Source: a virus
Taxonomy: Duplodnaviria; Heunggongvirae; Uroviricota; Caudoviricetes
DNA length: 64,000 nucleotides
IMG/VR virus record: IMGVR_UViG_2862035965_000001
Reading direction: 5' to 3' (one strand)
Shown here: one piece after another, positions 1 through 62,659 of the stretch
How the letters are laid out: each line of letters opens with the position of its first letter
Position numbering within the stretch: the first letter of the stretch is position 1
Made by a program: the position numbers and the translations under genes
Notes under the pieces: model-generated
Seen by the model: the letters and a program-made list of their open reading frames with translations, nothing else
Database searches by the model: none
What the model was told of the DNA's origin: nothing

Positions 1-430
1 CTGCGCCTGCAACAAGCGGTGCAGCAGCACAAATGGCATCACGGGTGGAATCAGAGTTGGTGGTGTCATCCGCGACATCCTGTGCAGATGCCACAGGAAC
101 AATAGACAGACCCAGACCAGCAACAGTCAGCGCGGTAATAGAACGCGCAGAATTCTTCTTCAAATTAAGAGACAAGGTGAAACGCCTTTCATCAACGGTA
201 ATAACATGCTGTGACTAGTTAAAAGATGAAAACTTAATTACTATTTCCCATAAAGTAATTAATGACTTTTAAACTACTTTTAAAGATATACGTTATAGAT
301 AAATATATGCAACTAAACTACTGTTTACTTATTAACTTCTTATATGTCCCCGGAAATCTAAAAACCCTTTAAGAAAATTTCTTAAAGGGTTTTCTTCATG
401 CTGTTGTATTAATCCAGCATTACACTGGCG

Positions 431-6384: not shown

Positions 6385-6386
6385 TC

Positions 6387-7284: not shown

Positions 7285-8169
7285 TCATTCTTCTTGCTGG
7301 AATTTTAACAGTTCATTCTTTGCAGGAAGCCGTACCTTCAACTCGTTAACAGTAGATAGCCCAAGAAAAGTGCGCACTGCATCATACTTGTAAACAGGTA
7401 ATGCATAGCGCATCACCAGCTCATCACCCATCTGCTGAAGATATGGCTCAACATCTGTACCCTCGATGCGGGCTTCCCATACATCCGCTGCTTCATTCAG
7501 CCACTCTTTGAATGCATGCTCAGAACCCCTCGGCCACGAACCATCCTGCGCATGTGCAATTACTTCCCCGCAAATACTCATTAATAAAGTGAGGTGGGTA
7601 TCTTTAGAGATCTTCAAACGAATCCGTTCGAGTTCATCATCACGTTGCTGGTTTTCATAATTATCATCTGAGTTAATTACGCCAGATTTCTCAAACTCTT
7701 CTACTATTCGAACCTTTTCAACACCAAACTTTGACTTGTAGACATCACGAGCATCTCCTAATGCCTCATCCAAGACTGGTTTAATCTCGCGCAGCTTACT
7801 TGATATTTTCAACTGACCTACTAAGTCAGATATATCTCGCTTCGACTTTGGCTTTACGACCCAATTGGAAAGCTCAGTAGTAATAAGAGATTCACGCAAA
7901 TCATCATGTGCAGATGGATACGCCTCCAACAACGTGCAAAGATCGACCCCGAGCTCTTTAGCGCCCTGGAACCCTGAGACCGACAATCGCTTAACATAAT
8001 CCAATGAGTTGACTCCACTTGGTAACGCACTCACAACACCAGAGACAGCGTTTGCGCGTGCATCCCGTTGAGCGAAATCCATCTGCTTTTTAGTTTGATA
8101 TGTCGCAAAAATAGTGACAAAAACCGCAACTATAGAGATGATAAACGCTACAACATCTAACTTATCCAT
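7285..8169 (-). CDS. membrane-anchored hypothetical protein
   Basis: 294-aa ORF with an ATG start. It has an N-terminal TM helix (VVAFIISIVAVFVTIFATY) and a charged, helical remainder. Confidence 0.55.
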   Translation of the reverse strand: MDKLDVVAFIISIVAVFVTIFATYQTKKQMDFAQRDARANAVSGVVSALPSGVNSLDYVKRLSVSGFQGAKELGVDLCTLLEAYPSAHDDLRESLITTELSNWVVKPKSKRDISDLVGQLKISSKLREIKPVLDEALGDARDVYKSKFGVEKVRIVEEFEKSGVINSDDNYENQQRDDELERIRLKISKDTHLTLLMSICGEVIAHAQDGSWPRGSEHAFKEWLNEAADVWEARIEGTDVEPYLQQMGDELVMRYALPVYKYDAVRTFLGLSTVNELKVRLPAKNELLKFQQEE

Positions 8170-31318: not shown

Positions 31319-32695
31319 ATGGGACTAGTCCTTATTATTGGCGGCGTGATCGTCGTCGGTATTATTCTCGCCATCGTCGCAGGCATTATTTCACTGTTTT
31401 CCCGTACCTGGATCAAGGTCGCAGCAGCCGATGAAGCACTCATTGTCTCTGCGAAGGGGAAGGGTGAGTCGCAGGTCATTGTCCACGGCAAAGCCGTGGT
31501 GATGCCGATTACCCAGACTCACCAGAAGATTTCTCTTCGTTCCCGACAAGTGAACATGCAGGTCACCGCGCAAAGCGATGACAATGTAACCCTTAATGTT
31601 GAAGCGGTTGCACTGGTGAAGATTGGCTCTGAGCACGAATTTATCCGCCGTGCAGCACAGCGTTTCGCATCCAGCGACAAGGAAATCGCACAGTTTACTC
31701 AGGACCAGCTCGAAGGTGTCCTGCGCGGTGTCGTCGCACAGCAGACGGTGACCTCACTCATGCGTGAACGCAAGAAGTTCTCCGAGCAGATCGCAGAGAC
31801 TGTCATTCCAGAACTAGAAAAACAGGGTCTGAACCTTGACTCTTTCCAGATTCGTGGCATTACTGATTCTGTAGGCTACATCAATTCTCTTGGAGCACCA
31901 GAAATTCAGGCCAAGCGCCAAGCTGCAGAAATCGCTGAGTCTGAGGCAGCACGCGCCATTGCAAAATCTCGTATTGCTAACCAAGAAGCAGATCTTATCG
32001 AGCAAACACAACTTGATGAGAACAAGGCTGCATCTGATGCCCGCATCGGTGAGGCACGTGCCCAGGCTATGCAGGCAGAACGCCTTGCTGATGAAAAAGC
32101 CCGCCAGGAAGTTCTCGCACAGCAGGCAGAAAATAAACAGATTGAGCTGGAAGCACAGGTCAACAAGGTCGCCGATGCAGAACGATACCGCCGCAAGCAG
32201 CAGGTAGAGGCTGATACCTTCGAGCAGACTCGTCGTGCCCAGGCGAAGGCAGAAATTGCCGAAGCTGAAGCACAAGCTCTTAAAACCCACGCTGAAGCAG
32301 AGGCCGAGGCTGTGCGTCTTAAAGGTCAAGCAGAAGCTGAGGCAATTAAGGCCAAGGCAGAAGCCTACCGCGAGAACCAGGAGGCACTACTGGCACAGCA
32401 GGCCATGGAAATTCTGCCAGATCTCATGGCACAGTTTGCCCACGGCTACGCCAACATTGGTTCCATGACCGTGCTTGCTGGCGGTGGCGCCACCTCTGGT
32501 GATGCTGCAGCTATTGGTGGCAATCTCGCCGGCGAACAGGCTGTTGCATTACAAGGTGTTTTCGCCACCGTGAAGCAGACCACCGGCATTGATCTTGCTG
32601 AACTGATTCAAGGTCGTGCACTCGGTCAGGCGCAAGGTGAAGCACAAGGCAACGCTATTGCAGCAGCCCTTGAGCAGGCACCTCGCAATGAGTAG
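31319..32695 (+). CDS. flotillin-like SPFH (band-7) domain protein
   Basis: 458 aa with an N-terminal TM helix, an SPFH-domain core and a long E/A/Q-rich coiled-coil repeat region (AEAEAQALKTHAEAEAEAVRLKGQAEAEAIKAKAEA), typical of FloT/YuaG-type flotillins. Confidence 0.8.
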   Translation: MGLVLIIGGVIVVGIILAIVAGIISLFSRTWIKVAAADEALIVSAKGKGESQVIVHGKAVVMPITQTHQKISLRSRQVNMQVTAQSDDNVTLNVEAVALVKIGSEHEFIRRAAQRFASSDKEIAQFTQDQLEGVLRGVVAQQTVTSLMRERKKFSEQIAETVIPELEKQGLNLDSFQIRGITDSVGYINSLGAPEIQAKRQAAEIAESEAARAIAKSRIANQEADLIEQTQLDENKAASDARIGEARAQAMQAERLADEKARQEVLAQQAENKQIELEAQVNKVADAERYRRKQQVEADTFEQTRRAQAKAEIAEAEAQALKTHAEAEAEAVRLKGQAEAEAIKAKAEAYRENQEALLAQQAMEILPDLMAQFAHGYANIGSMTVLAGGGATSGDAAAIGGNLAGEQAVALQGVFATVKQTTGIDLAELIQGRALGQAQGEAQGNAIAAALEQAPRNE

Positions 32696-35419: not shown

Positions 35420-36328
35420 ATGTTCACTCGTACTCTTTTCACCACCTTCATTGCCACTGTTATCGCTATGGTCAGCTTTAGCGCTCACGCATCCGCCATC
35501 TCTGTTGATCACACTCACACCGCAACAAAGCTGTCCAATACCGTATTTGTCGATGCTAATGATCGTTCTTATTGCTCAGGAACCCTTATCTCGAAGCAGC
35601 ATGTACTTACTGCACGCCACTGTTTTGCTGATGATCCGGCCACCGCTGTGACCATCGGGGACGTCATTGACCAGGCTAATTCCCGTGCTGTTATTCACAC
35701 TGTTGTGCATCCAGACGCCGATATTGCGGTACTTACTCTTGATGCACCTGTTCTTGACGCTGCGCCAGCCGCCATTAATCTTGGCTACCAGGGTCACGGC
35801 ACTGCCCTCCATGGTTCCGGCTTTGCCGGCAACTATGGCGAGGGCTCTATCGCACAAGATTTTGCTGGTGATAAGTTCGACAACCGCTTCTATGACGCCT
35901 ACGGCAACACCCTCGTTATCGCAGCACAGCGCGAAATCGTTCACGGTGATTCTGGCTCTGGTCTTAAAGATGACAACGGCGCTGTCGTGGGTGTTCTTGA
36001 CTACCGTTTCCCCGGAATTTTCGGTGAAACAGGGGGTGCCACCATGCACGATTACGGCCAGTGGGTCGTAGACAACACAGGTGGTCAGGCACAAGTCGTA
36101 GACAATCCACAGGGTGCACCAGCAGATGCAGAACCTATGACCGATCGGTACAACGATCTACCAGCACTGATTGCTGAAGGCTTCCAGACACAGACCCAGG
36201 TAGCCACCGAGCAGGTTGAAGCAGCTCACGCTGAGTTCACCGCACAGGTCGATCAGGTTATTGCTGATGCACAGACTCAATTCCAGACCCAGCTCGATGC
36301 AGGACTCGCTGCAGCTCTCAGCTCATAA
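35420..36328 (+). CDS. secreted trypsin-like (S1 family) serine protease
   Basis: Signal peptide, then LTARHCF (His), DIAVLTLD (Asp) and GDSGSG (Ser). Confidence 0.7.
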   Translation: MFTRTLFTTFIATVIAMVSFSAHASAISVDHTHTATKLSNTVFVDANDRSYCSGTLISKQHVLTARHCFADDPATAVTIGDVIDQANSRAVIHTVVHPDADIAVLTLDAPVLDAAPAAINLGYQGHGTALHGSGFAGNYGEGSIAQDFAGDKFDNRFYDAYGNTLVIAAQREIVHGDSGSGLKDDNGAVVGVLDYRFPGIFGETGGATMHDYGQWVVDNTGGQAQVVDNPQGAPADAEPMTDRYNDLPALIAEGFQTQTQVATEQVEAAHAEFTAQVDQVIADAQTQFQTQLDAGLAAALSS

Positions 36329-36454
36329 TGCCACCTAACCAACTCATCTGATTCACCCAACCCCTACCCCTCTGAACAGCTCTTATAGCTGTGCAGTGGG
36401 GTTTTATTCACGCTCGATCACAATTTTCCTAAAGGATTCACAGGTATAACCACC

Positions 36455-37474
36455 ATGAACGCATCCCGATTTATCTCTCGCTCAGCACTGATGTCACTTC
36501 TCGCACTTGTATCTGCATGTGGCTTCATTGCGCAGGCCAGCCCTGCTCACGCAGTATCTAACACTACATTCCTCAAAACCACAGCCTCATACTGCAGCGC
36601 AACACTGATTTCCGAGCAGCACGTCCTTACTGCCCGCCACTGCCTTAATAGTGGCCCAGCTACATCCGTGTCTTTTGGCGACCAGATTGATCACAACCGA
36701 CGACACGCCGTTGTCCACACTGTTGTTCACCCCGATGCCGATCTTGCTGTACTCACCCTTGATGGGCCAGTCACCTATGTCCAGCCGGCAGCGATCAACA
36801 CCGCCAAACAATTTGTTGGCGCTCCGGTAAACGTCACCGGTTTTGCTGGAAACTACAAGCAAGGTCAATGGGCTCACCAGGCGCACGGCGCCGTGACTGA
36901 TCATCAGTGGGATTCCCGCTATGGTTTTTCCATGAATTCGTTGTTTAATGATCGAGTCATTCCCGGTGACTCCGGCTCAGGCATCAAAGACGCCAACGGC
37001 AACATTGTTGGTGTGAGCGATTACACTCACAAGGGATTCGAATTCCGAAGCGGTGGTGTCACCATGCACACCTATGGTCAGTGGGTTGTCGATGCGACCG
37101 GTGGGTCAGCCCAGGTCGTACACAACAACTATGGTCTCGGTGTAGATCTGAGTAATATCACCACCAGCTCCGGGTCAAGCATGTCACCCGCCGCACCTAT
37201 TGATACCAGTGACGTTGTTACCACCATTGATGTTGTTGATACAGCATCAACCAATACGGACGCACCTGGTTTCACCGCATTCGACAACGACACTGCTGTG
37301 CCTATGGCACCAACCCCGACCCCAACTCTGGTTGTCCCTAGTTCTAGCGAGATCTCCACTGCCGTGTCAGAAATATCTGCATTAGTACAGCAGGCTCACA
37401 CCGATGCAGCTCAGGCTGTTCATGAAGCGGAAGCTGAATTCCACAACCAGCTTGCTGCGGTCTTCGCTCAGTAG
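36455..37474 (+). CDS. secreted trypsin-like (S1 family) serine protease, tandem paralog
   Basis: Signal peptide, then LTARHCL, DLAVLTLD and GDSGSG. It has a C-terminal Ser/Thr/Pro-rich extension. Confidence 0.7.
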   Translation: MNASRFISRSALMSLLALVSACGFIAQASPAHAVSNTTFLKTTASYCSATLISEQHVLTARHCLNSGPATSVSFGDQIDHNRRHAVVHTVVHPDADLAVLTLDGPVTYVQPAAINTAKQFVGAPVNVTGFAGNYKQGQWAHQAHGAVTDHQWDSRYGFSMNSLFNDRVIPGDSGSGIKDANGNIVGVSDYTHKGFEFRSGGVTMHTYGQWVVDATGGSAQVVHNNYGLGVDLSNITTSSGSSMSPAAPIDTSDVVTTIDVVDTASTNTDAPGFTAFDNDTAVPMAPTPTPTLVVPSSSEISTAVSEISALVQQAHTDAAQAVHEAEAEFHNQLAAVFAQ

Positions 37475-37881
37475 TTTAAGATCGCCGGTGCCCTTTATCA
37501 CGCGCCGGCGCGCGCCGGCTAAAAATGCCCTGTTTTACTCCCTCCGCCTGCATTTTCATCACTAGCAGGCAGGTCTCGCTGCGTGCACGCACTCTCAAGA
37601 AAACTAGCCTTGAGCTGCACTAATGGTGGTTTCTCACCACGGCCAACGTAGTGACCTGCGATACATTTACTTTCGTCACAGTGATGTTATGCGACCACCT
37701 AATAGGTCCCTCAAATTTACGGACCCCTTAGAGAGCGCCCTCTATTTTGCCAAAAAAGCACAACACCTACCACCACTCCCCGTGCACGGGTTGGGGTGAT
37801 GACGCTCCTTCATATGTGTTGTGTGGTTTATGCAAGTTATCTACACAACTACTGTGTCATCTCGTCCACTGTACCTACTCT

Positions 37882-37916
37882 TGCAGCAGTACATATGTAC
37901 TGCTGCAATTTTTTTT
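37882..37916 (+). terminator. 26-bp perfect palindrome TGCAGCAGTACATATGTACTGCTGCA plus T8
   Basis: Perfect dyad immediately followed by ATTTTTTTT. It could be a terminator or a protein-binding site. Confidence 0.45.
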
Positions 37917-38389
37917 AACACGCTCGCTGGCGCCGACCGAGCCACTCATACAACCGCAACACCCAAGTGCCGGATTAGGGTAGACCCTGACACGACACTG
38001 CCCACAGCACTGTTTAGACTGTCGGACTAAGTGGCCTGCCGGCTTTTCCCAACAGTGTCGGGTCAAGCCTAAGACTTATTCCGACAGTTTATTCGATAAT
38101 TATGCACATACTCCGCAATAATGTACTCGGTGTACTTTTACACCCAGTGCATGTTGCCATGACTTTGCTCAAAGTAGAAATCACCACAACATACCTTCAC
38201 AATACATCCGTCTTGTTTTGCAAACGAACCCATTATAGTTTTAGCAACAAAACCCGCGTATGCATATATTAATGTTCACAACTAATGTTTTAAACAAGTA
38301 CATAGTTCTGTGTTTTCTACTCCCCCACTACTGCAATAATGGAACGTAGTTTTTAACACAACACACAAAACTATTAAAGGTAATGGCAT

Positions 38390-42797: not shown

Positions 42798-43538
42798 ATG
42801 TCCGCAGCTTTACCTCACACCGCAGCAGATCCCGTACACACCACCCCAGCGAAACCGCTGCTCGATCATGTCTTAGATTCACTGGGACGCAGCATCATCA
42901 GTGGTGAAATGGAAGCCGGTAGCACATTCAAACTGCAAGACATCGGTGAAAAATTCGGTATCTCCCGCACCGTCGCCAGAGAAGCTATGCGTGCCTTAGA
43001 GCAACTTGGGTTGGTGGCCTCATCGAGACGAATTGGTATTACAGTGCTCTCTCACGAGCACTGGGCTGTCTTTGACAAAGCCATTATTCGCTGGCGCCTC
43101 GAAGATGAGCGTCAACGTGAACAGCAACTGCAGTCACTCACCGAACTTCGTATTGCCATTGAACCAATTGCTGCACGCAGTGTTGCTCTTCATGCATCAA
43201 GCGCAGAGATTGCTATCATCAGTGATCTTGCTGCACGAATGCGTAACCTCGGTGAAGCTGGCCGTGGCGCATCACAAGAATTCCTAGACGCAGATGTGAA
43301 ATTTCATGAGCTTATTTTGCAGTATTGCCATAATGAGATGTTCGCTGCCATGGCACCGCCCATAAAGGCTGTACTAGTCGGACGCACCAAACTTGGCCTT
43401 CAACCCGATCGACCTGCCGAAGAGGTCTTGGACAATCATGATGCTCTCGCACACGCACTAAGTGTTCGTAATGCAGACCTCGCCGAAAAAGCATCCAGGA
43501 ACATTCTGAGTGAGGTGCGCGACGCACTGAGCTCGTAA
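42798..43538 (+). CDS. GntR/FadR-family transcriptional regulator
   Basis: N-terminal winged HTH (KLQDIGEKFGISRTVAREAMRALEQLGLV) and a C-terminal all-helical FCD-like domain. Confidence 0.75.
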   Translation: MSAALPHTAADPVHTTPAKPLLDHVLDSLGRSIISGEMEAGSTFKLQDIGEKFGISRTVAREAMRALEQLGLVASSRRIGITVLSHEHWAVFDKAIIRWRLEDERQREQQLQSLTELRIAIEPIAARSVALHASSAEIAIISDLAARMRNLGEAGRGASQEFLDADVKFHELILQYCHNEMFAAMAPPIKAVLVGRTKLGLQPDRPAEEVLDNHDALAHALSVRNADLAEKASRNILSEVRDALSS

Positions 43539-43620
43539 CTGCCTCTTACTCGCTCAATAACTAACACATAATTGCCACTAAACGAGCCACTACACAATTA
43601 CACCGCTCATCGTTACTTAA

Positions 43621-43669
43621 TTACCCTTTAATAGTCTTTTACAAGGCTGTTAAAGGGTAATTTTTTATT
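43621..43669 (+). terminator. intrinsic terminator (TTACCCTTTAATAGTCTTTTACAAGGCTGTTAAAGGGTAA plus T-run)
   Basis: Homologous to the terminator at 41672. Confidence 0.6.
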
Positions 43670-43764
43670 CGTTTGTTTTGGGCCCATTAAGTGTCAATTA
43701 CATGTCGAGTAAGTGACACTTACAGCGCAATTGAATAGTCACTTAAACGCACGCTAAAAAAACC

Positions 43765-43852: not shown

Positions 43853-44041
43853 ATGTCTGTTGATGATCTTTACGCTGTTGTTCTTGATACCCGCACCGGT
43901 GAACCTGTTCCCTGCGTGTTCTGCAACTCTGCCCCACAGATTGTGATCTACGACGGTTGCTGCTCTCTGACCTGCACCCAGGCTCTCGATGATCTAGTTG
44001 AGGCTGAATACTACGGTGCAGATCTCACTGCAGCCGCTTAA
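43853..44041 (+). CDS. small Cys-rich protein
   Basis: 62 aa with CVFCNS...CCSLTC. Confidence 0.45.
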   Translation: MSVDDLYAVVLDTRTGEPVPCVFCNSAPQIVIYDGCCSLTCTQALDDLVEAEYYGADLTAAA

Positions 44042-46989: not shown

Positions 46990-47892
46990 CTATTCTCCAC
47001 CCAACGCAGCCCGGAAATATGCTGTGAACATCTCCAGCATCATGATGACAAAGGGTGTTCCATCGCTGTAATTAAGCGGATTCTGCGTCACGGAAAAGGC
47101 TTTATAATACGTGCGCTCATTGCTGAATATGGCTTGGGACACCATCATGGCGCCAGCAGCAGAGAGACTTCTGCGCATTTGCACACTAAGCAGATAGCGA
47201 CCGAGCCGACCATTTCCATCATAAAAAGGATGAATCGCCTCGAATAAATAGTGACTCATCACCGCTGTGGCTATATCTTCTGCGCTACGACGGAGCTCTA
47301 ATTCGATAAAAGCATCCACACCAGTGATGATCTCTGACTCTGAGGAGAAGCCTGCATGGGCAACGTGGCCGGCACCTGTCACAACATGAACGGGGTGAGA
47401 TCTGAACAATTCCCCATCAAGTACAGCATCAGAATCCACTAATTCGCCCTGTGATTGACTGCCGGCAGTAGCGAAAAAGTCGTTATAAAGACCGCGCATC
47501 TGCTGCACGGAACCAGGAAATAATGCAGCAGCGCCGGCTGATGTCACCTCAAGTAAGCGCACATAGTAGCGATACATAGCCAACTCCGACAGCGCGGATG
47601 GGATGGCGACACCCTCAACACTGTTACTCGCAACGACTTCTGAGCCGGCGAGATCATGCAATTTCTGGGCTTTAAACTGCTGCGCCAGCTGTGTGTCGAG
47701 CTGCTGCAGCTCTGAAACTAGTACCTCGACCTCTGCATCAACGACACAAAACAGCGGAAAACCACGCACCAGCACGCCGGTATGAACTGAGTTCTCGTTA
47801 GTGAGCCGCTCACAATAAGTAGTTTCTAAGAGTTCCCGAGCCTGTGTGTGATGGGCTGCATGGAAAACTTTGCTTAACGGTCGATACTGCAT
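46990..47892 (-). CDS. Fic/Doc-family protein (AMPylase-type Fic domain)
   Basis: IHPFYDGNGRLGRYLLSVQMRR matches the canonical Fic motif HPFx[DE]GNGR. Confidence 0.8.
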   Translation of the reverse strand: MQYRPLSKVFHAAHHTQARELLETTYCERLTNENSVHTGVLVRGFPLFCVVDAEVEVLVSELQQLDTQLAQQFKAQKLHDLAGSEVVASNSVEGVAIPSALSELAMYRYYVRLLEVTSAGAAALFPGSVQQMRGLYNDFFATAGSQSQGELVDSDAVLDGELFRSHPVHVVTGAGHVAHAGFSSESEIITGVDAFIELELRRSAEDIATAVMSHYLFEAIHPFYDGNGRLGRYLLSVQMRRSLSAAGAMMVSQAIFSNERTYYKAFSVTQNPLNYSDGTPFVIMMLEMFTAYFRAALGGE

Positions 47893-47949
47893 AGTCCCTA
47901 TTGTCCCCTATTGGTCAATAACAAGGCGATTAGCTGGCAATTAAAAAGC

Positions 47950-49200
47950 ACCATAATCGACTACGGCAGGACTATTAAGTGTCAATTGAATAGTTCCGTA
48001 ACTGTCTTTTTAATAATCTCCAAGAATAAGCGCCTACAAAGACACAATTGTCTCGACAGTTAATCGTGCCGAAATGGGTTGTTAAAAGACAACGTACTAA
48101 ATGACCGCAACATAACTATTAAGTGTCAATTACAAAGGGCCATAGTAAACAGTTAATTGCGGTCCCCAACAAGTACTGAAATAAGTCGATTATATGTCAA
48201 TTGAATTGTTACTTAATAACACTCGCTACACACAGTAATCAGCAGGACTACTAAGTATCCATTATGTGTCAATTATCTGGAACCTTTAATGGCTTTGAAA
48301 AGGCACTATCCTATTGGCTCTTAGCGGTCGATTACATAGCAATTATATCAAGACTTTAAAGTAACTCATTCTACCGCACACTAAAAGGTCGATTAACTAA
48401 CAATTCAATTGATCGTTAAAAAGCCTTTATCTTTCGGATTGCGAGTAAATACTTAATCGACCTTTAATAGTGAGCTAATTGGCTTTTAAAGGCCAACACA
48501 TTGGATCATTTTTAAAAGGCTTTTAAGTGTCGATTAAATTGTCTTGTTACTGGCTTTCACAAGGCTCTTAAGAAACACTCCCCTATTGTCTTTTAATCGT
48601 CACTTAATCGACCTGTAAAAGTTAGTTAATTGACTCTTGAGTAACGACTATTTAATTGACCTTTAAGTAACGATTATGAGGTAATTATATTGATCGAATA
48701 GAGACACATAACTGACTACTCTTTATCTGACCATTACGAGGCTTTAAAAGAGCACTTAAGTGTCGATTAAGTGTCTACTCAATAACTGTCCATTATGAGG
48801 CTTTAAAAAGACAATTGAATCAACCGTTAATCGTCACTTAAATAACAATTAGCAATAGGCACTTTTAGAGCACCGTAAAAGCCATTTAATTGTCACGCAA
48901 TGAGCCCTTAAGTAACAATTAAATAAGTGGCTTTAAAAATACTGCTACGGCACGATTGAAAGACAATTAACGGTCAATTAAGTATCAATTAATTAATAGT
49001 GATTTAGAATACTCTTAGAGCACAATTTAATTGACAGCTAATAGACCTTTAAGTAACAATTACTTTATCTGCACTTTAAAGGCACGCTAAAAGCCTTTTA
49101 ATCGACATTTAATTGTCATAACGCTTCGGCACACCCAGGGAATACACTTAACGGTCGATTAAATGGATACTAAGTGACAATTAACCAGAGTCGCGTGGCA
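47950..49200. repeat. AT-rich non-coding array of short interspersed repeats (iteron or centromere-like)
   Basis: About 1.25 kb with no credible ORF. The motifs TTAAGTGTCAATT / AATTGACACTT (at least 10 copies), GTCGATTA / TAATCGAC (at least 10), GGCTTT(T)AAAAG (at least 8) and TAAGTAACAATTA (at least 4) occur in both orientations with irregular spacing. Confidence 0.6.
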
Positions 49201-49912
49201 GAGTTGCGACGAACAGTAGCGAATTATCACTACCCCCGTACCGCTGATATTTAACATTAAAACAACATTTACCCCATTTGTTTTGTTTAGTTTTAACGGA
49301 CTACTACCCCCGCCATTGTGGGACTGTGCAGCGGTATTTTCTACACTTATCAGACGTGAAGCAGGGCCCTGCAGCAGCCTGCAACGAGCATCCATTTCAA
49401 GCCGACAACGAGCTTGTAGAAACGCAGCTACAGCGGACACCAACGAGCCAGCAACGCATGATCTAGCGGCCTGAAACAGGCGCCCTGAGGCCCGCCACAA
49501 TGCCGCAACGATAGCCCGGAAAACTCCCCAACGGACTGTTGAGGGGATTAGCTTGAGACACCTAAAAGTGCCCCAGCGAACCTGCTATATCGGTTGGGGA
49601 ACCTACCGCAGCAGCCTCTCTCAAACACTTGAGAAAAACTCTGTAGCAAGCCTGCTTCACGCTCCGCAACAAGACCTCACAAGACTGCAACGGCTGCTAG
49701 AAAAAGCTCCCATAATTCCTCACAGCACCGTTTAAAACCCGCCACAGAGTTGCAGCAAACCCCTCAACAACACTGCTGCACACCGTCGCATCTCACAGCC
49801 CGCATCGACCCCAGAACCCTTTAAAAAGCTTCTATTCCGGGGTCTGTTAACAAGTCTCCACAGGGGCTGACAAAGCACTTATCAAGCCGCAACGTCTGCT
49901 TAATCTCCATCA

Positions 49913-49971
49913 CCGGTGTATTCCAGTGGGACCCTCGTTCTCGTGCCTCGAACCCCACTGAAATACACCGG
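49913..49971. repeat. 17-bp inverted repeat (CCGGTGTATTCCAGTGG ... CCACTGAAATACACCGG)
   Basis: Near-perfect arms with 1 mismatch, separated by 25 nt. Confidence 0.45.
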
Positions 49972-50016
49972 CGTCACCCTCGCTTCGCTCGTATACACAG
50001 CAGACCTCTCCTACCT

Positions 50017-50105
50017 GGGGAAATGCATAACTAAATACACGTGTATACGGCTAAAATCGGCAAAAAGCGCCCCCGAATACACGTGTATACGAACTCAATT
50101 TCCCC
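50017..50105. promoter_or_regulatory. symmetric double-operator element
   Basis: GGGGAAAT-n10-ATACACGTGTATACG-n27-ATACACGTGTATACG-n5-ATTTCCCC. Each 15-mer contains the 10-bp palindrome TACACGTGTA. Confidence 0.45.
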
Positions 50106-50159
50106 AGCTTAACAAGCATATTCACCCCTTTTCTGGTCGCTAAAGCTCCCGCCATAGGG

Positions 50160-51200
50160 GAAAAAGAATGAAAAGGGCATAAGGGGGTGTGACGCATTGA
50201 GCCTTTCGCTGCGCTCAATTCTCAATCCGATCGGCATAGCCGATACACCTGGTTTGCTGACGCAAACCCCCGTCCTTCGGACGGCCCTTATCACCCAGCT
50301 CACAAGTCAAAGAGGGGTCAGTTGCTTCGCTGCCTTTCCTCCCCTCTTCGCCTCCCGCTGTGTGCCCCTTCGGGGTGCCCCTTACAACCACCGATGTGGC
50401 TGGCGCCACGATCTTTTCGGTGGTTGTTATCCAAGCCCTTGTGCCACCAACCTGACTGCAGCTGTCGCTGCGTCATGTCTTCGGTTCGCTACGCTCACTG
50501 GTGTCACGGGCTTTCAAGACAGGCGTGCTGCGCGGCCCTCATAATCGGCTGTAGCGATTCTTCGTTGCCTGCTGCGCCCGCGACGCGCCCAAAAGCATTC
50601 ATCGCTGCACGGCTGCTGCTCCGTTCTCCGAACTCCCGCATCAGCTCGCGCAGTCCGTTGAGGGCGCGCTAAAAGATGAAAAGATCCTGCAACAAAAAGC
50701 GGTTGCAAAAAGATGAAGAGAAGCCTGCTACGAAACCTCTCGTTTCTGCGCAAACAATACGACTAACGCACGCTGAAAAACTCTCACAGCAACCACTGCG
50801 GTTTCTGCACTAAACCTCGTTATCAACGCAATAAAAAGATCCCCAAAATGCTAAAAACATAAGTTAAGTGATCACCCCTTTTAACACCGTATGGGGTAAT
50901 TAGGGTTCATTAATTACCCCCCACTTAATTTATGAAATTTCCATTTCTATCGGTACACGGTGTGTGGTGTGGGTACGTGGAAGAAGTCCGACTCAAGTCA
51001 AGCGCTTGCAACCTACGGTTGCCTCTCGCGCTTGTGCACGTGTGATGAGTGAGTCGCCTCTGTGGGCCGTGGTGTCCAAAAGCGATTCTCGGTTTCACCG
51101 ATCATCGCGCCAGGCGGCGCCTGGCCGGTTGAACAAGGGAATGGTGGGTGCGTCACCTTGCCGCCCGCTGGTGGGGGTTGTGAAAGAGAAACCACCCTGC
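50160..51200 (+). other. GC-rich non-coding segment rich in GC stems with UUCG tetraloops (candidate structured RNA; strand not established)
   Basis: CCGTCCTTCGGACGG, CCCCTTCGGGG, AACCACCGA...TCGGTGGTT and GTCTTCGG occur within 250 nt. The only ORFs are short, overlap in several frames and lack ribosome-binding sites. Confidence 0.3.
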
Positions 51201-51293
51201 TCCACATACACGCAAAAATTAACTTCTTTATTTAGTGAATAAACAACTAGTATTTTTAATGACTTACAAATATCAAGAAAGAATCTGTTCCTT

Positions 51294-55456: not shown

Positions 55457-55989
55457 AGTTAATTAAAAGTCCCTTTACTTACATTACTTAGTTATTCATT
55501 AATTACTTTAACAAACTTAAAGCCAGATAACGCCAGCAAGAAAGGTAGTTTCGCTACGTTCCAGAGAAAGGCAAAAAAGTAGAGCCACTGGGTCACTACT
55601 CCCAATGGCTCTACACTCTTCTCGCTCCGTTAAAGATTCCTGCTGTTCACCACCCCTGCCGGACTATCTGCACACCAGGCAAGTAAAGGAAAACTGATCG
55701 CGGTCCTGGACAGGGCAGCAGTAAATGTTTAACTCACTTTTCAGTATAGACAAACTTTAAAGACAATGCAACTAGTTTCTAAATCTATTTCAAAGTCAAT
55801 TACTTACTCACTAAGGAGAATCAACCATGTCCGGTCGCACCAATCCCCGAAACCAATTTTATGGGTCATATATCTTACGCAAACTTTTCAAGTCGTGCAG
55901 AACCTCAAAATTCCCATAAGTTTTTAATTATCAACACAGTAACTACCTGGCTATCGAAATAGAACGGAAGTGCGCATAACAGGAACATA

Positions 55990-56600
55990 TATGAATTTAA
56001 TTATGAACGTAACGTTACAAACAGAAAGTATCGTTACACCTCAAAAACACACTATGACCTGCTGTAACGGTGAATCTGTAGCGCTACGGTGTAACGATAC
56101 GAAAAAGCTAAAGTTACACCCAAAAGCACCCTTTAACCTGCAACTATAGTCACAAAATTGTGGTTTGTAACGTTGTAACGATACTTTTGGAACTTTAATA
56201 TAGACAGAAGAGAAAGAGTAAGAACTCATAAACGTGAAATAGGACACATAAGTACTTAAAAGCACATATGAGCATCATGCTATGTCGTTTTACTACTTTT
56301 CACCATATGAACGTGCACATGAGCACTACCGCTCTGCACGGTGGTGATGATAGGTAAAAGCCATAACGGATTATTGCGATCCCTCGCGCGTATGTAAAAC
56401 ACGTCAAGTATCGTTACAACGTTACACTTTTGCATTCATGCAGGTCATAGTGTGTTTTTCATGTAACGTTGATGTAACGCTTATATTATTTTAATAATTA
56501 ACTTTAATATAATAAAAGGGTCTTTGACGTGCATCTTTGGTGCTGTAACGCTGTGTAGCGGAGTGTAACGATACGTAACGTTACGCTCGAATTAAATTCA
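55990..56600. repeat. iteron array (TGTAACGATAC / GTAACG repeats), origin-like, immediately upstream of the primase-helicase gene
   Basis: At least 12 GTAACG / CGTTAC cores. The longer form TGTAACGATAC occurs at about 56025 (reverse), 56090, 56172, 56410 (reverse) and 56567. AT-rich blocks are interspersed. Confidence 0.55.
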
Positions 56601-57078
56601 CGTTTGTGCAGTTTTTCAGCCGTCATCTCACCGTGTGAGACTACTGTCTCACAAATAGGCACCACTGCGGCACCCTCTAGATTGAATAAACCTATCAGTC
56701 TGCGTGCGTCTGCGGCCCCTAAAGCGCGCTCCTCACCCCTTTGCGTGCACGGCTATGGTTCGTACCGCTATCCATGCGTAACAACAGCTCTCCCCACCCA
56801 CTGCCTCTTACGCGCGCATACAACTGTGCGCTAAGTGCGCCTTAATAAACCGTTGAGTTTCTTTATTACTAAGCTTGTTTAAATTGAAAGTTCGCTATAT
56901 TCTGATTAAATAAAGTAAGTAATTTAGTAATTCGGCTCCACGGCCACCCGCACCGTTGTTCACCCACAGTGCACAAGAAAAAGCAACTCACTTCGTGCTT
57001 TTTTCACCGACCCCGGCTGTGTGGATGCCACCCACTTACACCGCACAATCGAAGACAAAAGTAAAGGATGTTCACCTT

Positions 57079-58845
57079 ATGTCTGACACCACAGACAACA
57101 ACGACCCAGCTACCTCACTTACAGTCGATAAAGTCGCGCCCGATACTTCTTCCTCTAGCAGCACCGCTGTGCAACCTAAGAAGAAATTCACCATCATTAA
57201 GCAAGTGAACATGATTGCGCGTACCGCTATTGATGACTGCATTAATCGACTAGGCCCAGATGTTGTCACCATGTCCAGCGAAGACATTGCTGACCGGGTG
57301 GTCAACTCCATTAACGTTGCTATTGCCAAGGAAAACGCACGCGCACAAGACGCCAAGGCTGCAGTGCGCTACACACCTATCTTTAAACTCGATTTCTCCC
57401 ACGTCGCCGTGCTCATGCGCAGACTGCATGTGATTATCAATATCGCACCATCCCATAACTCTGACCCCGACAGCGATATGTTGGCTATTTACGACCCCAA
57501 CCCCGCGAGTGAGCATTATGGGATCTATCGCACCTCAGAGGCTGAAATACGCCGCGTAGCGCGTGAATACTGCCCTGACCTCACCTCAGCGCAGTTTAGG
57601 GAATTGCTCATGGCTCTCTCCGATGCAGCGCCACGTAAAGTGCGCCACAAACAACGTGATTTGATTCCTGTGAAAAACGGCATCTTCAACTACTCAACCA
57701 AGCAACTAGAACCTTTTTCTCAAGAGTTTGTCTTTCTTGCTAAATCTGCCGTGAACTACAACCCAGCAGCAACCAACCCTGTCATTGTCCATCCCCAGGA
57801 CGGCTCTGTCTGGGATGTTGAATCATGGATGAACGATCTCTCTGATGATGAAGAGGTTGTCAACCTACTCTGGGAGATTATCGGCGCTATCGTGCGACCC
57901 TATGTGTCCTGGAATAAATCTGCCTGGTTCTATTCTGAGGCAGGAAACAACGGTAAAGGCACCTTGGTTGAGCTCATGCGCAACATTTTGGGTGCAGAAG
58001 CCTATACCAGCATTCAGCTCTCGGACTTCTCCAAAGAGTTCCATCTTGAATCATTGACGCGTGCGCAAGCAATTCTTGTTGATGAGAACGATGTCGGCGC
58101 ATTCTTGGAAAAGTCTGCGAACCTTAAAGCCATTGTCACCAATGACGTCATCTCCATTAACCGCAAGCACAAGACCATGCTCAGCTATCAGTTTTACGGC
58201 TTTATGGTGCAGTGTATTAACGGTTTCCCCAAGGTCAAAGACCAGTCTGAGTCATTTTTCAGGCGCCAACTCTTTGTCCCTTTTGAGAAAAGCTTCACCG
58301 GTGCCGAGCGCAAGTACATCAAAGACGACTACATGTCGCGTACAGATGTACTCGAATATGTTCTCCACCGCGTGCTGCATATGGACTACGACAATCTCTC
58401 CACCCCTGCAGCAGCTCTGGCTGTGCTCGATGAATACAAAGAATTTGTCGATCCTGTACGTGCATTCTGGAATGAATTCAATGATCAATTTGTCTGGGAT
58501 CTGCTGCCACTGCAATTTCTCTACGAGTTTTATCGCAAGTGGTTTGACCGCGACAGTCCATCCGGGTCTGTACTCGGTAAACGCAGCTTCATTCAGAAAA
58601 TCACGACCATCGCTGTTGATAGCGGTGAGTGGGAGTATCCACTCACCGCACAGCGTCCCGGTGGCGATATGGCTGTTCCTGAGCCATTAGTCATTGATTA
58701 CGACCTCACCGAGTGGCAAAACGCCCTGGTCGATAAACGACACCCAAACAAGGGCATTCCACTGCCACTCAAGGCTAATTATCGAGGGTTGCTGCGCAAA
58801 CAACCAGCTGCTCCCGCCGCCTCTCCTGCACCAACCACCCCTTAA
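57079..58845 (+). CDS. DNA primase/helicase, P4/D5 family (SF3 helicase C-terminal domain)
   Basis: Walker A in context (FYSEAGNNGKGTLVELMRN), Walker B (AILVDEND) and motif C (VTNDVISINRK), matching the phage/plasmid-primase P4-family C-terminal pattern. ATG at 57079. Confidence 0.7.
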   Translation: MSDTTDNNDPATSLTVDKVAPDTSSSSSTAVQPKKKFTIIKQVNMIARTAIDDCINRLGPDVVTMSSEDIADRVVNSINVAIAKENARAQDAKAAVRYTPIFKLDFSHVAVLMRRLHVIINIAPSHNSDPDSDMLAIYDPNPASEHYGIYRTSEAEIRRVAREYCPDLTSAQFRELLMALSDAAPRKVRHKQRDLIPVKNGIFNYSTKQLEPFSQEFVFLAKSAVNYNPAATNPVIVHPQDGSVWDVESWMNDLSDDEEVVNLLWEIIGAIVRPYVSWNKSAWFYSEAGNNGKGTLVELMRNILGAEAYTSIQLSDFSKEFHLESLTRAQAILVDENDVGAFLEKSANLKAIVTNDVISINRKHKTMLSYQFYGFMVQCINGFPKVKDQSESFFRRQLFVPFEKSFTGAERKYIKDDYMSRTDVLEYVLHRVLHMDYDNLSTPAAALAVLDEYKEFVDPVRAFWNEFNDQFVWDLLPLQFLYEFYRKWFDRDSPSGSVLGKRSFIQKITTIAVDSGEWEYPLTAQRPGGDMAVPEPLVIDYDLTEWQNALVDKRHPNKGIPLPLKANYRGLLRKQPAAPAASPAPTTP

Positions 58846-58867
58846 CAACCACAAGAAAGCAACCATT

Positions 58868-61800
58868 ATGTCCGCACCAACCATCTACCCCGGCACCAAA
58901 GCATCTATTGACACCATCACCATGGGTGATGCCCGAATCGTCTATTTCGATATTGAGTCACTCCACAATATTTTCACTGTAGCAACCTATGACTCCCTGA
59001 CTCACCACGTCGATTTCTTTTATCTACTCGATCACGACACCAGCCCGCAGGTCACAGTACTGCCACACTCAATGGATTATTTCGACCAGACCCGCAGCGA
59101 TGCTGTCATGACCGCCATTGTTAATCAAAACCCAGCGTTCGCAGAAATTAAAGGTTCACCCATCACCACTGCTGATGTGAGCTTGCACAATCTGGGTGAC
59201 ACCAACGCCAATCGACGCTGGCAGTCTAATGTCCTGCTGGCACGACTACTCGGTGGAATTAACGAACGCGGTCACATCTCCACCAATCATTACGGTAATG
59301 ATCTTGCTCGACAGTTTGCTGAAGCAACCCTGGTCACCCGTGATTTCGATGCCGATTATGACCCCACAACAGCGCACCCTTTTATCGCCGGTTTCAACTC
59401 GATCAACTATGACACCTCCCTGATCAGCCTGTACTTCGCGCTGTTGACCTCGAATATCGGAAGCACACAGACGTATTTCCCGGTGATCACCGCACAGGAG
59501 CTTCGTGCGCATAACGACAAACTCTTTAGCCCTGAGTTCATCAAAAACATGCCGAAGTATCTCTGGGATCGCAACAACGGCGCTGGCTATGAATCCGCCT
59601 CGTATTATCGCAACACCATGCTCAAATCGGGTCGCCACATTGATATTCAACGACTCAATGAAAAGCAGCTCTTTGTCGGACTCAAGCGCCTGCTTGGTCT
59701 ACTCGGCCACCAAATTCTTGAATCGGATCGTCTCTCTGGCGATGATGCCCATGTAGACACTAACGAAGACGTACTCGATCTCATTGCCTACAACGTCTCA
59801 GATGTGGTGGGCACCAGACTGCTTGCTGAAGACCCGGTGTATTCCGGCTCATTCGACCTACGGGCAGGACTTCTCAGCACCTACCCTGAGACTATCTTTG
59901 ATCATGATGGAACCTTCCGTCAGCCATCCACGCAGATGCATAAAGATCGCCTGACGATTAATACCTCATCTGCACAGTTCGCAGCACGTATTTTGGCGCC
60001 TTATCGTCCACTGCGTGATGTCCCAGATGCTATTGGTGACATGCCAGTGGTGTCCTACCTCTATCCTGACGCAGCTGTAGCTCAAGCAACAGGTCAAAAG
60101 CAGGTCAACGTGCTAGACGAATCGAAGAAGTTCTTCTATGACAACATCACTGACCCAGCAGCGCGTGCCGCCTTTGATGAAGTGTTTGCTTTTTACGCAG
60201 ACATTGAGGGGCGCAACTTCAACAGTAACAATGAGGCTATTGATACTCAGATCAACCAGCTACGAGCGTATCTCAACCGGGTTGTCCCATTCGACGCAGC
60301 AGGGCACGCGCTCTATGATGTGCGCACCCGTTTTGAGCAGATCTTCCCCAAGAATCTCAGTTACATCAATGATGCAGCTGATATGACCCCCCGTGCGGTA
60401 TCGAACTTTGATGATCTGGTCGCACTCTTCGATGATATTCGCGGTGTGCTTGATCGAGGCTTAGAGATCTCATCCCCGAATCATCATGAGATGGTCGATA
60501 CTATGCGCAAGCAGCTGCACTATGTGCAGGCGTTTTATCGTGCCTGGGGACCTATCCAGCGCCGCTTTAATGATGCAGGCCCAGCGGTGACTCAGCCACA
60601 GCTCACAGTGATCTACCCACCGCTAACCCCTGCATCCGCAGAAAAATTCGACAAGATCACCTCAGTCGCTGCTGTGCAGAAACGCCCGACCACCCTGCCC
60701 TATTTCCGTGCCGATGGAACCCCTACTCGTGGCTTTGCCAACTTCTCCACTGGTGGTATTCACGGCGCAGAATACAACGGAGATCGCTTTGATCATGATG
60801 TCAACACCTACGCATCATCATCGACTGAGTTTTTCGCTGTTCTTGACGCGTCTCTGAGTGCGCTTCATGCAGCCCACCAAGCAGATCCTGACTCAGCTGA
60901 TTATCAGATCGCACAGGATGCTCTTTCCTGGGCAAAGCAGGTCCTTGATAATCAAACCCATTACGATAAGTCGCCACAGCTGCATAACCCAGCAACAGGT
61001 GTCACCTACGACAAGGAGATTGTCGCCTTAGCTGCCTGGTGGATTCGTAATAAGCCTGTTGATGTTGTCTTACCATCAGGTGAGACCACCACTGTAAAGC
61101 ACGCTGATGTCCTGGCGTCTACTTCCCGCAAGAGCACCCCATATTGGCGCGCCGAACCCAAGGGATCGAAAGAGCCAATCCTGTTCCCAGTAGCAAAATC
61201 TGGCGGTTCCTCGCTTGAAAAGAAGTACAACTACACCTCTGCAGGTACAACAATTCACGAGGACTTCACCAGTTACTATCCTCTACTACTGACCAATATG
61301 GCTGCATTTACTAATGCTGACCTAGGTATTGATGAGAAAACCGGGCGCCCTCGTGACCGCTACAGTGACATTTTCGAACAAAAAGAGATCTATGGTGCAC
61401 AGCGCAAAGACCCTTCTATTGATGAAAAAACAAAACAACGTCTAGGAATTTTGCGAGAAGGCACCAAGCTGATTCTTAACTCTGCTACCGGTGCCGCTGA
61501 TGCCGGTCACGACACTCCGATCCTCATGAACAACCGCGTTATTGCCATGCGCATTATTGGGCAATTATTTTCTTGGAGAATTGGGCAAGCTCAATCATTG
61601 GCTGGTGCAACGATTATCTCCACCAACACTGATGGTCTCTATTCTGTGCTGGATATGGAGACCAACCAGCGTGTTCTTGATGAGCACGCTACAGCTATCG
61701 GCGTGCAGATTGAACCAGAAGAGCTCGATATTGTCTCCAAGGACTCCAACTCACGTGCCGAATTCCTCAGCAACGGATATATCAATGCTGCAGGTGATCT

Positions 61801-62659
61801 GGCGTGTTGGGATGGTCCCAACTCTAGGAACTCGCTTGATCACCCAGCCTTTGTTGACCATGTATTAGTGAAATACTTCCAACTCATCGTCAACAACACT
61901 GTCCCAGAGATTCCAGAAACCCCTGAACTTGAGGGCGTACCACTGGCCCTTGATCAACCCATGAACCGCCATGAAGTCTCGAAAATCGTCGCCACCATGC
62001 ATGAAGAATTCGAGCCGAAGAAGCTGCTGTCGTTTTACCAAAACATCTTGGCTTCTTCTCGCGGTTCTAATACGTTCCTATTCTCTGTCCCCTATATTCC
62101 CGCAGCAGAAGGAGAAGAAACCCACCCTGCAACAGATACCACCACCATTGCGACACCAACCTTAAGTTTTGATGCTTATGGCAATAAAGCCGAGGTCATG
62201 CCGACCCAATCCACCCTGAATAAACGCGTACCCTCGTTGCTGCAGTATTACACGCGAACGTTCCATGTGCGCAAAAATACTGAGCAGGCTGTCTTTGATG
62301 TTATTGGCGCCAACCCAGTACTCATTGCCGCAGCAAAGGCAACGGCAATTACCGCAGCCTCTGCTGATTCACGCAAAAAGAAGGGTGTCGCACCCACCAA
62401 CGCTGACCCAGTGGCCATGCATATGCTGGAGGTCGCCGGTGTTGATACGCAATCGTTGCGCCATGAAAAGGATCTCAAGGTCACCAAGCACACCGGCCAA
62501 GACCCAAGCCTGCCTGTGGTGGTCTTTAACCAAACCATCTGGCACAACCCCAACGACGATGTAATCAACGCACTGCTCGGCGCTATTGACCAGGATGCCT
62601 ATATTGATATGGCGATCTCGTCCTACAACAATTCCTGGCGCAACATCATCCCAGCCTAA
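58868..62659 (+). CDS. family B DNA polymerase (1263 aa)
   Basis: Exo I (IVYFDIES), Exo III-like (YNVSDV), motif A (DFTSYYPLLL, compare DxxSLYPS), motif B (KLILNSATGA, compare Kx3NSxYG) and motif C (ISTNTDGLYS, compare YGDTDS). ATG at 58868 after an AAGAAAGC ribosome-binding site. Confidence 0.8.
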   Translation: MSAPTIYPGTKASIDTITMGDARIVYFDIESLHNIFTVATYDSLTHHVDFFYLLDHDTSPQVTVLPHSMDYFDQTRSDAVMTAIVNQNPAFAEIKGSPITTADVSLHNLGDTNANRRWQSNVLLARLLGGINERGHISTNHYGNDLARQFAEATLVTRDFDADYDPTTAHPFIAGFNSINYDTSLISLYFALLTSNIGSTQTYFPVITAQELRAHNDKLFSPEFIKNMPKYLWDRNNGAGYESASYYRNTMLKSGRHIDIQRLNEKQLFVGLKRLLGLLGHQILESDRLSGDDAHVDTNEDVLDLIAYNVSDVVGTRLLAEDPVYSGSFDLRAGLLSTYPETIFDHDGTFRQPSTQMHKDRLTINTSSAQFAARILAPYRPLRDVPDAIGDMPVVSYLYPDAAVAQATGQKQVNVLDESKKFFYDNITDPAARAAFDEVFAFYADIEGRNFNSNNEAIDTQINQLRAYLNRVVPFDAAGHALYDVRTRFEQIFPKNLSYINDAADMTPRAVSNFDDLVALFDDIRGVLDRGLEISSPNHHEMVDTMRKQLHYVQAFYRAWGPIQRRFNDAGPAVTQPQLTVIYPPLTPASAEKFDKITSVAAVQKRPTTLPYFRADGTPTRGFANFSTGGIHGAEYNGDRFDHDVNTYASSSTEFFAVLDASLSALHAAHQADPDSADYQIAQDALSWAKQVLDNQTHYDKSPQLHNPATGVTYDKEIVALAAWWIRNKPVDVVLPSGETTTVKHADVLASTSRKSTPYWRAEPKGSKEPILFPVAKSGGSSLEKKYNYTSAGTTIHEDFTSYYPLLLTNMAAFTNADLGIDEKTGRPRDRYSDIFEQKEIYGAQRKDPSIDEKTKQRLGILREGTKLILNSATGAADAGHDTPILMNNRVIAMRIIGQLFSWRIGQAQSLAGATIISTNTDGLYSVLDMETNQRVLDEHATAIGVQIEPEELDIVSKDSNSRAEFLSNGYINAAGDLACWDGPNSRNSLDHPAFVDHVLVKYFQLIVNNTVPEIPETPELEGVPLALDQPMNRHEVSKIVATMHEEFEPKKLLSFYQNILASSRGSNTFLFSVPYIPAAEGEETHPATDTTTIATPTLSFDAYGNKAEVMPTQSTLNKRVPSLLQYYTRTFHVRKNTEQAVFDVIGANPVLIAAAKATAITAASADSRKKKGVAPTNADPVAMHMLEVAGVDTQSLRHEKDLKVTKHTGQDPSLPVVVFNQTIWHNPNDDVINALLGAIDQDAYIDMAISSYNNSWRNIIPA

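Follow-up and report, generated by a model that had tools for sequence, protein, structure and literature searches.

The DNA analysed here (the window, 64 kb in length) corresponds to positions 1,925,367-1,989,366, approximately, of AP017369.1 (GCA_002355155.1), a 3.54-Mb chromosome that we take to be that of Corynebacterium suranareeae. The window codes for a Fic protein and for several phage-like proteins: collagen-like tail-fibre proteins, a RecJ-like exonuclease, a D5-type primase-helicase and a polymerase-like protein of 1321 aa. The order and sizes of its genes agree with those of cg1896/97, cg1955, recJ, cg1957 and priP in the CGP3 prophage. The recJ gene, presumably cg1956, lies between the counterparts of cg1955 and cg1957, and the GntR gene of the window would be, on our assumption, cg1935 (gntR2). 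CGP3 itself has cg1955 at 1,832,237-1,833,538 (433 aa), a cg1957 product of 260 aa, and priP, cg1896 and cg1897 are listed for it as well (Table S1, PMC7002338). Judged by this gene content, the window represents a giant prophage similar to CGP3 that resides in a Corynebacterium chromosome.

Directly past the start codon of the Fic gene, which is read from the minus strand, begins a block (47,893-49,210) with 35% G+C, as compared to about 50% both in the flanks and as the average of the window. The original prediction of an AT-rich, gene-free repeat block at this place was borne out: an ORF scan of 47,893-49,210 detected no ORF longer than 50 aa, which also disposes of a coding region, and the repeats are far more numerous than in shuffled sequences. 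The features of the region are as follows.

43,570-43,760, no strand: third and small cluster, with units of the same type; 8 half-sites were counted where 1.1 are expected, a number reached in 0 of 1000 shuffles
46,990-47,892, minus strand: gene for a Fic-domain protein (PF02661, E = 6e-10); left border of the array
47,930-49,184, no strand: alpS-type repeat array of 54 units (TTAA-NN-GWC-NN-TTAA), called from enrichment over shuffles and from phasing
47,930-48,012, no strand: leftmost three units of the array, at 38-120 bp upstream of where the Fic gene starts
48,382-49,184, no strand: dense core of the array, 45 units in runs of 2-6, with 70% of the DNA covered by units
48,723-48,852, no strand: longest phased stretch, a 5-unit run and a 6-unit run with a mutual offset of 15 bp
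48,886-48,894, plus strand: exact TTAATTGTC, the 9-mer from the synthetic alpS DNA used for the in vitro shift with AlpA
48,962-48,970, minus strand: exact TTAATTGTC, same 9-mer
49,109-49,117, plus strand: exact TTAATTGTC, same 9-mer
49,176-49,184, minus strand: exact TTAATTGTC, same 9-mer
49,211-51,293, plus strand: 2.1 kb without convincing ORFs, from the right end of the array to the cg1955-like gene; 49-52% G+C

The repeats had been described as four interleaved families with irregular spacing. An iteratively refined matrix converged instead on a single quasi-palindrome, the 15-bp unit TTAA-NN-GWC-NN-TTAA, which consists of two inverted TTAAnnG half-sites and shares its outer TTAA with the neighbouring unit, so that successive units stand in an 11-bp register. 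The four words on which the families had been based are overlapping views of this one unit. As for their copy numbers, given as 4-10 or more, GTCGATTA does occur ten times exactly, but each of the other three words has only one or two exact copies, and 5-20 copies of the four words are reached only when 1-2 mismatches are allowed. Nor is the spacing irregular. Distances from TTAA to TTAA cluster at 11, 22 and 33 bp; units follow one another at 11 bp within runs of 2-6, and the runs are offset from each other by 11k+4 bp (26, 37, 48, 59 or 70 bp).

Units were called by comparing 15-mers with TTAANNGNCNNTTAA and allowing at most 2 mismatches over the 10 fixed positions, and the null model consisted of 1000 dinucleotide-preserving shuffles of the array region itself. 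By this measure 54 units were observed, as compared to 2.0 +/- 1.5 in the shuffles (maximum 7), and 27 pairs of neighbours lie exactly 11 bp apart where 0.05 are expected. The half-site TTAAnnG occurs 59 times on both strands of the 1,318 bp (6.3 +/- 2.7 expected; none of the 1000 shuffles was as high), TTAA 46 times (17.6 expected), TTAA-N7-TTAA 12 times (0.2 expected) and GTCRATTA 16 times (0.1 expected). The density of units climbs rightward along the array, and its longest phased stretch belongs to a higher-order repeat of about 59 bp (two repeat families are spaced by 59). With at most one mismatch, the whole 64-kb window holds 26 matches to the unit against 0.54 expected: 21 are in the array and three at 43,628-43,746, and the other two are single matches at 269 and 55,463. 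The 9-mer TTAATTGTC has four copies in the window, all of them inside the array (0.53 expected). Two AT-rich control regions of the window (55,457-56,955 and 37,475-38,389) showed no enrichment of the repeat.

The three near-perfect units at 43,628-43,746 belong to the small third cluster, which lies upstream of a Cys-rich 62-aa ORF (43,853-44,041) and just beyond the end of the gene for a GntR/FCD regulator. A related copy had been noted near 43,690-43,730, and it is present, exact, at 43,687-43,722 within this cluster. At the other side, position 47,892, originally described as the end of the Fic operon, is the start of the Fic gene, and, from position alone, the promoter of that operon must sit in the left edge of the array, at 47,930-48,012; a regulatory link would follow from this arrangement. 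To the right of the array, the region described as GC-rich has the 49-52% G+C that is average for the window. Plus-strand replication genes are indeed found on this side, with recJ starting at 52,696, but the first plus-strand gene, at 51,294, codes for a secreted protein to which no function is assigned.

The intervening 2.1 kb contain a C-rich, G-poor stretch, paired palindromes and hairpins, and are 84% identical in CGP3. As a separate observation, a non-coding module made up of the C-rich tract, the paired palindromes and a structured, RNA-like element of about 125 nt, which would start near 50,173 of the window (about 1,831,117 in ATCC 13032), is shared with distant actinobacterial phages. 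There was no Rfam match in the whole window at the gathering threshold and none in 47.8-51.4 kb at E up to 1, and ARAGORN found no tRNA. Searches of phage and plasmid collections with the array and its flanks, by megablast and blastn, also gave no match.

A homologous array is found in CGP3. Two Logan contigs, L004 and L005, code for a RecJ 91% identical to that of the window, and they contain exact matches to three primers for the cg1955 promoter of strain ATCC 13032, matches that the window does not have; the two contigs are therefore CGP3 itself. The CGP3 array lies at about 1,828,886-1,830,175, and the CGP3 contig ends within its left part; the alpAC promoter of ATCC 13032 is at about 1,781.6 kb. 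That the array is present in a finished chromosome and again in independent short-read assemblies of another strain rules out an assembly artefact, which had been named as a possible refutation. The two arrays are 86% identical, and the surrounding 3.8 kb are 84% identical. Identity to L004, however, is unevenly distributed along the array: 90.4% at the fixed positions of the units, 86.4% at their N positions and 73.6% in the DNA between units (fixed positions versus inter-unit DNA, Fisher p = 4e-10), and L004 retains 52 units. Since the unit positions are more conserved than the DNA between them, the units are the selected feature, under purifying selection.

Three metagenomic contigs of distant relatives (L007-L009), with a RecJ 45% identical to that of the window, have a gene-free region of 2.7 kb at the same place upstream of recJ. 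It opens with a small cluster of a related half-site, TAAnnGWC, seven in 500 bp (six in its core, 5,980-6,480, against 0.37 in shuffles). A C-rich tract comes next, then palindromes of the GTATAC type and then a structured element that is conserved, which is the order seen in the window. Only in the two CGP3-type prophages did we see the dense 11-bp array. A 198-kb Gordonia contig from a metagenome-assembled genome has both modules, and alpS-like words lie upstream of its adaptor gene. A scan of genome contigs with the RecJ alignment, and with RecJ alone, yielded no confirmed relative, and a scan of viral contigs only distant RecJ relatives with 24-26% identity. When viral contigs were scanned for two phased units, 25 loci were obtained, about the number expected by chance, and none has a comparable array. 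The scans also turned up, in L020, an unrelated 11-bp tandem repeat, TCTTAAGAGTC, beside an ORF that resembles a terminase small subunit as judged by eye. Contigs L049 and L006 have no obvious repeat in common and were not shown to be one phage.

The half-site of the unit is a published one. The CGP3 protein AlpA binds, as assessed by EMSA, the promoter of its own alpAC operon, which has 24 repeats with the consensus TTAAnnG, termed alpS (Donovan et al., 2015; PMC4446434). When TTAATTGTC was repeated seven times in a synthetic DNA, AlpA shifted this DNA far more effectively than a scrambled version, and AlpA loaded on alpS stabilised filaments of AlpC (Forde et al., 2017; PMC5539076). Homologues of alpA (187 aa) and alpC (469 aa) are present in the genome that carries the window, at L010:16231-18246; this places them 4.7-6.7 kb beyond the left edge of the window, with about 52 kb separating them from the array. 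The alpAC promoter of this genome shows a seven-fold enrichment of TTAAnnG (16 against 2.4), close to the nine-fold enrichment in the array (59 against 6.3). Its 0.3 kb contain 19 units, with a spacing of 11 bp in 14 pairs; the array has 54 units over 1.25 kb and 27 such pairs. A comparison that makes no use of the motif gave the same picture: 60-64 8-mers are common to array windows and the alpAC promoter, as compared to at most 22 for other AT-rich windows, and the sharing of 8-mers and 9-mers with this promoter is three-fold above that of AT-rich controls. Contrary to the original prediction, in which the binding protein was not known, the unit thus probably has a known binder, as it is the published alpS motif of AlpA (PMC4446434; PMC5539076).

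The N-terminal 90 residues of AlpA are identical in the three variants found, and the same DNA specificity is therefore expected of all three. Relatives of AlpA are few: two clusters were obtained at 90% identity or more, and an exhaustive search with E up to 1e-3 gave 15 representatives. The family alignment falls into three parts, of which the N-terminal domain and the C-terminal tail (pattern DMxDhF..AR) are conserved and are joined by a disordered linker, and the adaptor of the Gordonia element is 39% identical to AlpA over the N-terminal 70 residues. A first structural model of AlpA, built from two sequences, was uninformative (pLDDT 53). For the family model, the best structural match was ParR of pB171, a ribbon-helix-helix adaptor, with a weak resemblance; AlpA and ParR have no similarity at the level of sequence, and Foldseek found no match for the better AlpA model in the PDB. 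The modelling suggests that the N-terminal domain of AlpA may be a ribbon-helix-helix dimer like that of ParR. The AlpC homologue matched ALP_N with E = 7e-4, below the Pfam cut-off, and has 927 relatives, several of which are named ParM or StbA; on this evidence AlpC is a member of a large actinobacterial ParM/StbA family.

Taken together, the sequence evidence makes it reasonably probable that the array is a second alpS cluster, roughly three times the size of that at the alpAC promoter, and a type II-like centromere of the AlpA/AlpC system in a CGP3-like prophage. The centromere proposed in the original prediction is thus the best supported reading as far as a protein-binding, centromere-like array is concerned, but it would be of the ParM/ParR (type II) kind and not of the parS/ParB kind. 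A parS/ParB system was considered and rejected: the window has no match to TGTTTCACGTGAAACA at up to three mismatches, and the Pfam scan of 40 of its proteins detected no ParA, ParB or Rep domain, as had been noted for the neighbourhood from the start. What is new is most likely the locus, within a system already known, rather than the kind of element.

We infer that AlpA occupies the array and that the array acts as a centromere, possibly as follows. After induction, AlpA, an early protein, would bind each 15-bp palindrome as a dimer; in AlpA, the putative ribbon-helix-helix domain at the N-terminus is followed by the disordered linker and the conserved C-terminal tail. The 11-bp register is near one helical turn and would align consecutive dimers along almost the same side of the DNA, where they could polymerise cooperatively into short nucleoprotein filaments of 2-6 units; the 11k+4 offsets would turn successive runs around the helix. 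The tails of the loaded AlpA would capture and stabilise the actin-like filaments of AlpC, and these filaments may move or position the excised prophage DNA and in this way favour its replication. The array, beside the module of recJ, primase and polymerase, would be the main platform for loading AlpA, because it has about 54 units as compared to 19 at the alpAC promoter. AlpA may also regulate the Fic operon, given the position of the leftmost units, 38-120 bp upstream of the Fic gene.

Several points weigh against AlpA as the protein that uses the array. The alpS motif has been stated to be most concentrated at the operon alpAC (Donovan et al., PMC4446434), yet the array, in the same prophage, is equally dense and three times longer. 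The specificity of AlpA is modest, as residual binding to scrambled DNA was seen, and the synthetic alpS DNA that was used had a period of 15 bp and not of 11 bp (oligonucleotide table, PMC5539076). Moreover, the array is 52 kb from the operon that it would serve, unlike a classical parC, and its AT-rich DNA might plausibly be bound by the Lsr2-like silencer CgpS as well.

Three other explanations were weighed against the AlpA/AlpC centromere. The array could be a replication origin of the prophage, with the 11-bp units as iterons for the D5-type primase-helicase or another initiator and the AT-rich DNA as the unwinding element. The array is AT-rich and gene-free and adjoins recJ, the D5-like primase-helicase gene and the gene for the 1321-aa polymerase-like protein, and in distant relatives a conserved non-coding module takes up the corresponding position upstream of recJ. 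CGP3 replication starts within the integrated prophage (PMC6173762), and the copy number of CGP3 is halved when AlpA or AlpC is lost (PMC4446434). Nonetheless, no gene for Rep or another initiator was recognised, no DnaA box with at most one mismatch was found between 45,748 and 52,802, and the GC skew is negative throughout the region and shows no inflection. The iteron origin that had been offered as the alternative to a centromere is thus without positive support, and an origin based on DnaA boxes was rejected on the same scan (45.7-52.8 kb). The same units are also found at two loci that one would not expect to be origins, the alpAC promoter and 43.6 kb; a protein with another role has already been documented to bind the motif, and the Gordonia relative with both modules has no second array of this kind near recJ. 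We regard an origin at the array as improbable.

A role of the array as a platform for the nucleation and spreading of CgpS, to which the repeats would be incidental, seems to us more doubtful again. It would agree with the 35% G+C of the array in a background of about 50%, with CgpS's preference for AT-rich DNA with A/T steps and its coverage of about 20% of CGP3, and with its binding to the alpAC promoter, which is of the same sequence make-up. CgpS favours long unbroken A/T stretches, however, and the longest A/T run in the array is 12 bp, with G/C interruptions every few bases. Silencer binding also leaves unexplained a palindromic unit in strict 11-bp phase and the greater conservation of units over inter-unit DNA (90% versus 74%), and the control regions are equally AT-rich and do not have the motif. 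As CgpS binds the alpAC promoter, it probably also contacts the array, which is compatible with binding by AlpA. Finally, there is a very slim chance that the array is a set of operators for another DNA-binding protein of the prophage, such as the GntR/FCD regulator or a product of the Fic operon, and serves transcription control or acts as a protein sink. The left edge of the array must hold the Fic-operon promoter and the GntR/FCD gene stops just before the mini-cluster at 43.6 kb, but 54 sites over 1.3 kb are far above what an operator needs, and the available evidence links TTAAnnG to AlpA and not to the GntR/FCD regulator or the Fic products. Promoter-like sites are not enriched (7 against 5.1 expected), a result that also led us to reject a cluster of promoters.

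Returning to the AlpA/AlpC centromere, the motif, the binder and the system are already known, and no description of the array was found in the literature searched; within that literature, it is the locus, its size, the refined unit and its conservation that are new. CGP3 is the model system in which the actin-driven handling of phage DNA and the Lsr2-type silencing of prophages in actinobacteria are studied, and work on AlpA has so far assumed that alpS is the cluster of roughly 0.3 kb at the alpAC promoter. A larger cluster elsewhere would change where the segrosome is expected to form, how the titration and autoregulation of AlpA are modelled, and which fragment is chosen for reconstitution in vitro or for stable large replicons in Corynebacterium. 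It is conceivable, if rather unlikely, that the array is the principal centromere of CGP3-type prophages and forms, with the adjoining 2-kb module, a combined control centre for partition and replication at which the loading of AlpA displaces CgpS. If so, the functional alpS site, defined at the alpAC promoter, would have to be placed elsewhere.

Among known systems, the iteron origins (P1 oriR, lambda ori, P4 ori/crr) also consist of short repeats in AT-rich, non-coding DNA near replication genes. They differ from the array, which has no cognate Rep and no DnaA boxes, whose units recur at two other loci, and whose motif has a known binder that is not an initiator. The parS/ParB (type I) systems likewise use clustered protein-binding sites to mark a replicon for segregation, but the motif and the periodicity are different, and the window has neither a parS-like 16-bp palindrome nor a gene for ParA or ParB. 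The type II parC sites of the ParM/ParR systems (R1, pB171, pSK41) come closer, since they are tandem repeats of about one helical turn, as in the array. The adaptor of parC is a small ribbon-helix-helix protein that binds cooperatively and whose C-terminus engages an actin-like ATPase, and here the actin-like partner of the ParM family is the AlpC homologue, with biochemistry described in PMC4446434. The parC of R1 has ten 11-bp repeats, and the array has five times more units. Furthermore, the units of the array are palindromic and not direct repeats, its short runs are offset by 11k+4 bp, and it belongs to an integrated prophage and not to a plasmid. In type II systems the centromere lies at the par promoter, which it autoregulates; this holds for the smaller cluster at the alpAC promoter but not for the array, which is distant from the promoter of the partner operon and does not overlap it. 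By analogy, the array may work like a parC, although we do not file it as one, and the refined site, a 15-bp palindrome in 11-bp phase, would tie AlpA mechanistically to the ParR-type adaptors. The alpS of the CGP3 AlpA/AlpC system (AlpACS) has the same TTAAnnG half-site and the same 11-bp, TTAA-sharing phasing as the array. The prophage is of a like type, alpA and alpC are present, and the array holds exact copies of the TTAATTGTC that AlpA shifted. It differs from the published alpS in its position, beside the replication module and 52 kb from the alpAC promoter, and in being about three times larger.

The gene-poor stretch between the main repeat array and recJ holds three compact features:

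49,913-49,971: hairpin with 18-bp arms, immediately upstream of the palindrome pair
50,034-50,049 and 50,076-50,091: two identical copies, 42 bp apart, of the 16-bp palindromic word AATACACGTGTATACG
50,173-50,300, plus strand: conserved element of about 125 nt, also found in L004 (a contig of CGP3 itself) from 2232, in L007 (a distant metagenomic relative) from 7876, and in contigs L041, L042, L044 and L045

The conserved element contains, in this order, GGGCATAAGGGGGTGTGAC, the hairpin CGGCATAGCCG and ACACC, and it has hairpins with UUCG loops. Copies are present in CGP3 and in contigs of distant actinobacterial phages, and also in unrelated contexts from metagenomes; in the latter, a terminator-like hairpin comes after the element. 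Between lineages, its stems show compensatory changes. Rfam has no match for it. The element is a candidate for a new small RNA.

The region to the left of these features (49,300-49,900) has no ORF and a strong strand asymmetry (C 33%, G 21%, A 28%, T 17%), which would fit a putative Rho-loading (rut) tract. Its counterpart at the equivalent relative position in L007 (5,250-7,650) is far longer, with many CACACC and CACAGC words. The same contig has GTATAC-type palindromes (7,715-7,790) where the window has the AATACACGTGTATACG pair, and both sets of palindromes may be sites for some binding protein.

Units of the alpS type are also found outside the main array and the alpAC promoter. A third, small cluster lies between a regulator gene and an ORF:

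42,798-43,538: GntR/FCD regulator gene, which by its position resembles cg1935/gntR2
43,570-43,760: small cluster of alpS-type units
43,853-44,041: Cys-rich 62-aa ORF

This arrangement suggests that at least one other promoter region also holds AlpA-type sites. At the left end of the window (1-430), downstream of the cg1896-like tail-fibre gene, TTAAnnG is weakly enriched (6 occurrences against 1.7 expected; 15/1000 shuffles), and this segment has 9-mers in common with the alpAC promoter. Elsewhere in the window (31,319-32,695; 35,420-37,474) are genes for a protein of the SPFH/flotillin type and for a tandem pair of trypsin-like proteases, an unusual cargo for a prophage.

Repeats that conform to TTAAnnGTC are also present in L020, an unrelated viral contig (IMGVR_UViG_3300006738_003713), as about 12 tandem 11-bp copies of TCTTAAGAGTC at 3,270-3,420. 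Directly upstream is a 161-aa ORF whose product, by eye, looks like a terminase small subunit; the repeats may form a pac-type or centromere-type site.

With regard to replication, the RecJ of the window found no confirmed relative in either scan of the genome-contig collection. The source genome itself was not recovered, even though the window is part of an NCBI chromosome; the region is possibly masked or absent there. The following gene also belongs here:

58,694-62,659: gene for a 1321-aa protein that has no Pfam domain and, in PHROG, matches DNA polymerase only weakly

In two distant relatives, L006 and L047 (the contig of the Gordonia MAG), the D5-like primase is followed by an equivalent protein (1290-1469 aa). 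The 1321-aa protein may be a divergent replicative polymerase. The Gordonia contig (QFNH01000001.1, 197.9 kb; handles L046 and L047) encodes, on a single contig, ParA, a ParB-like gene, an AlpA-like adaptor and an AlpC-like actin, with GACACTTAATCGTC and GTGACAGTTATAGTGTC among the words upstream of the adaptor gene. It also encodes the module of recJ, D5 primase and the 1290-aa protein. Thus, in other large elements of actinobacteria, the Alp module and the replication module travel as a pair.
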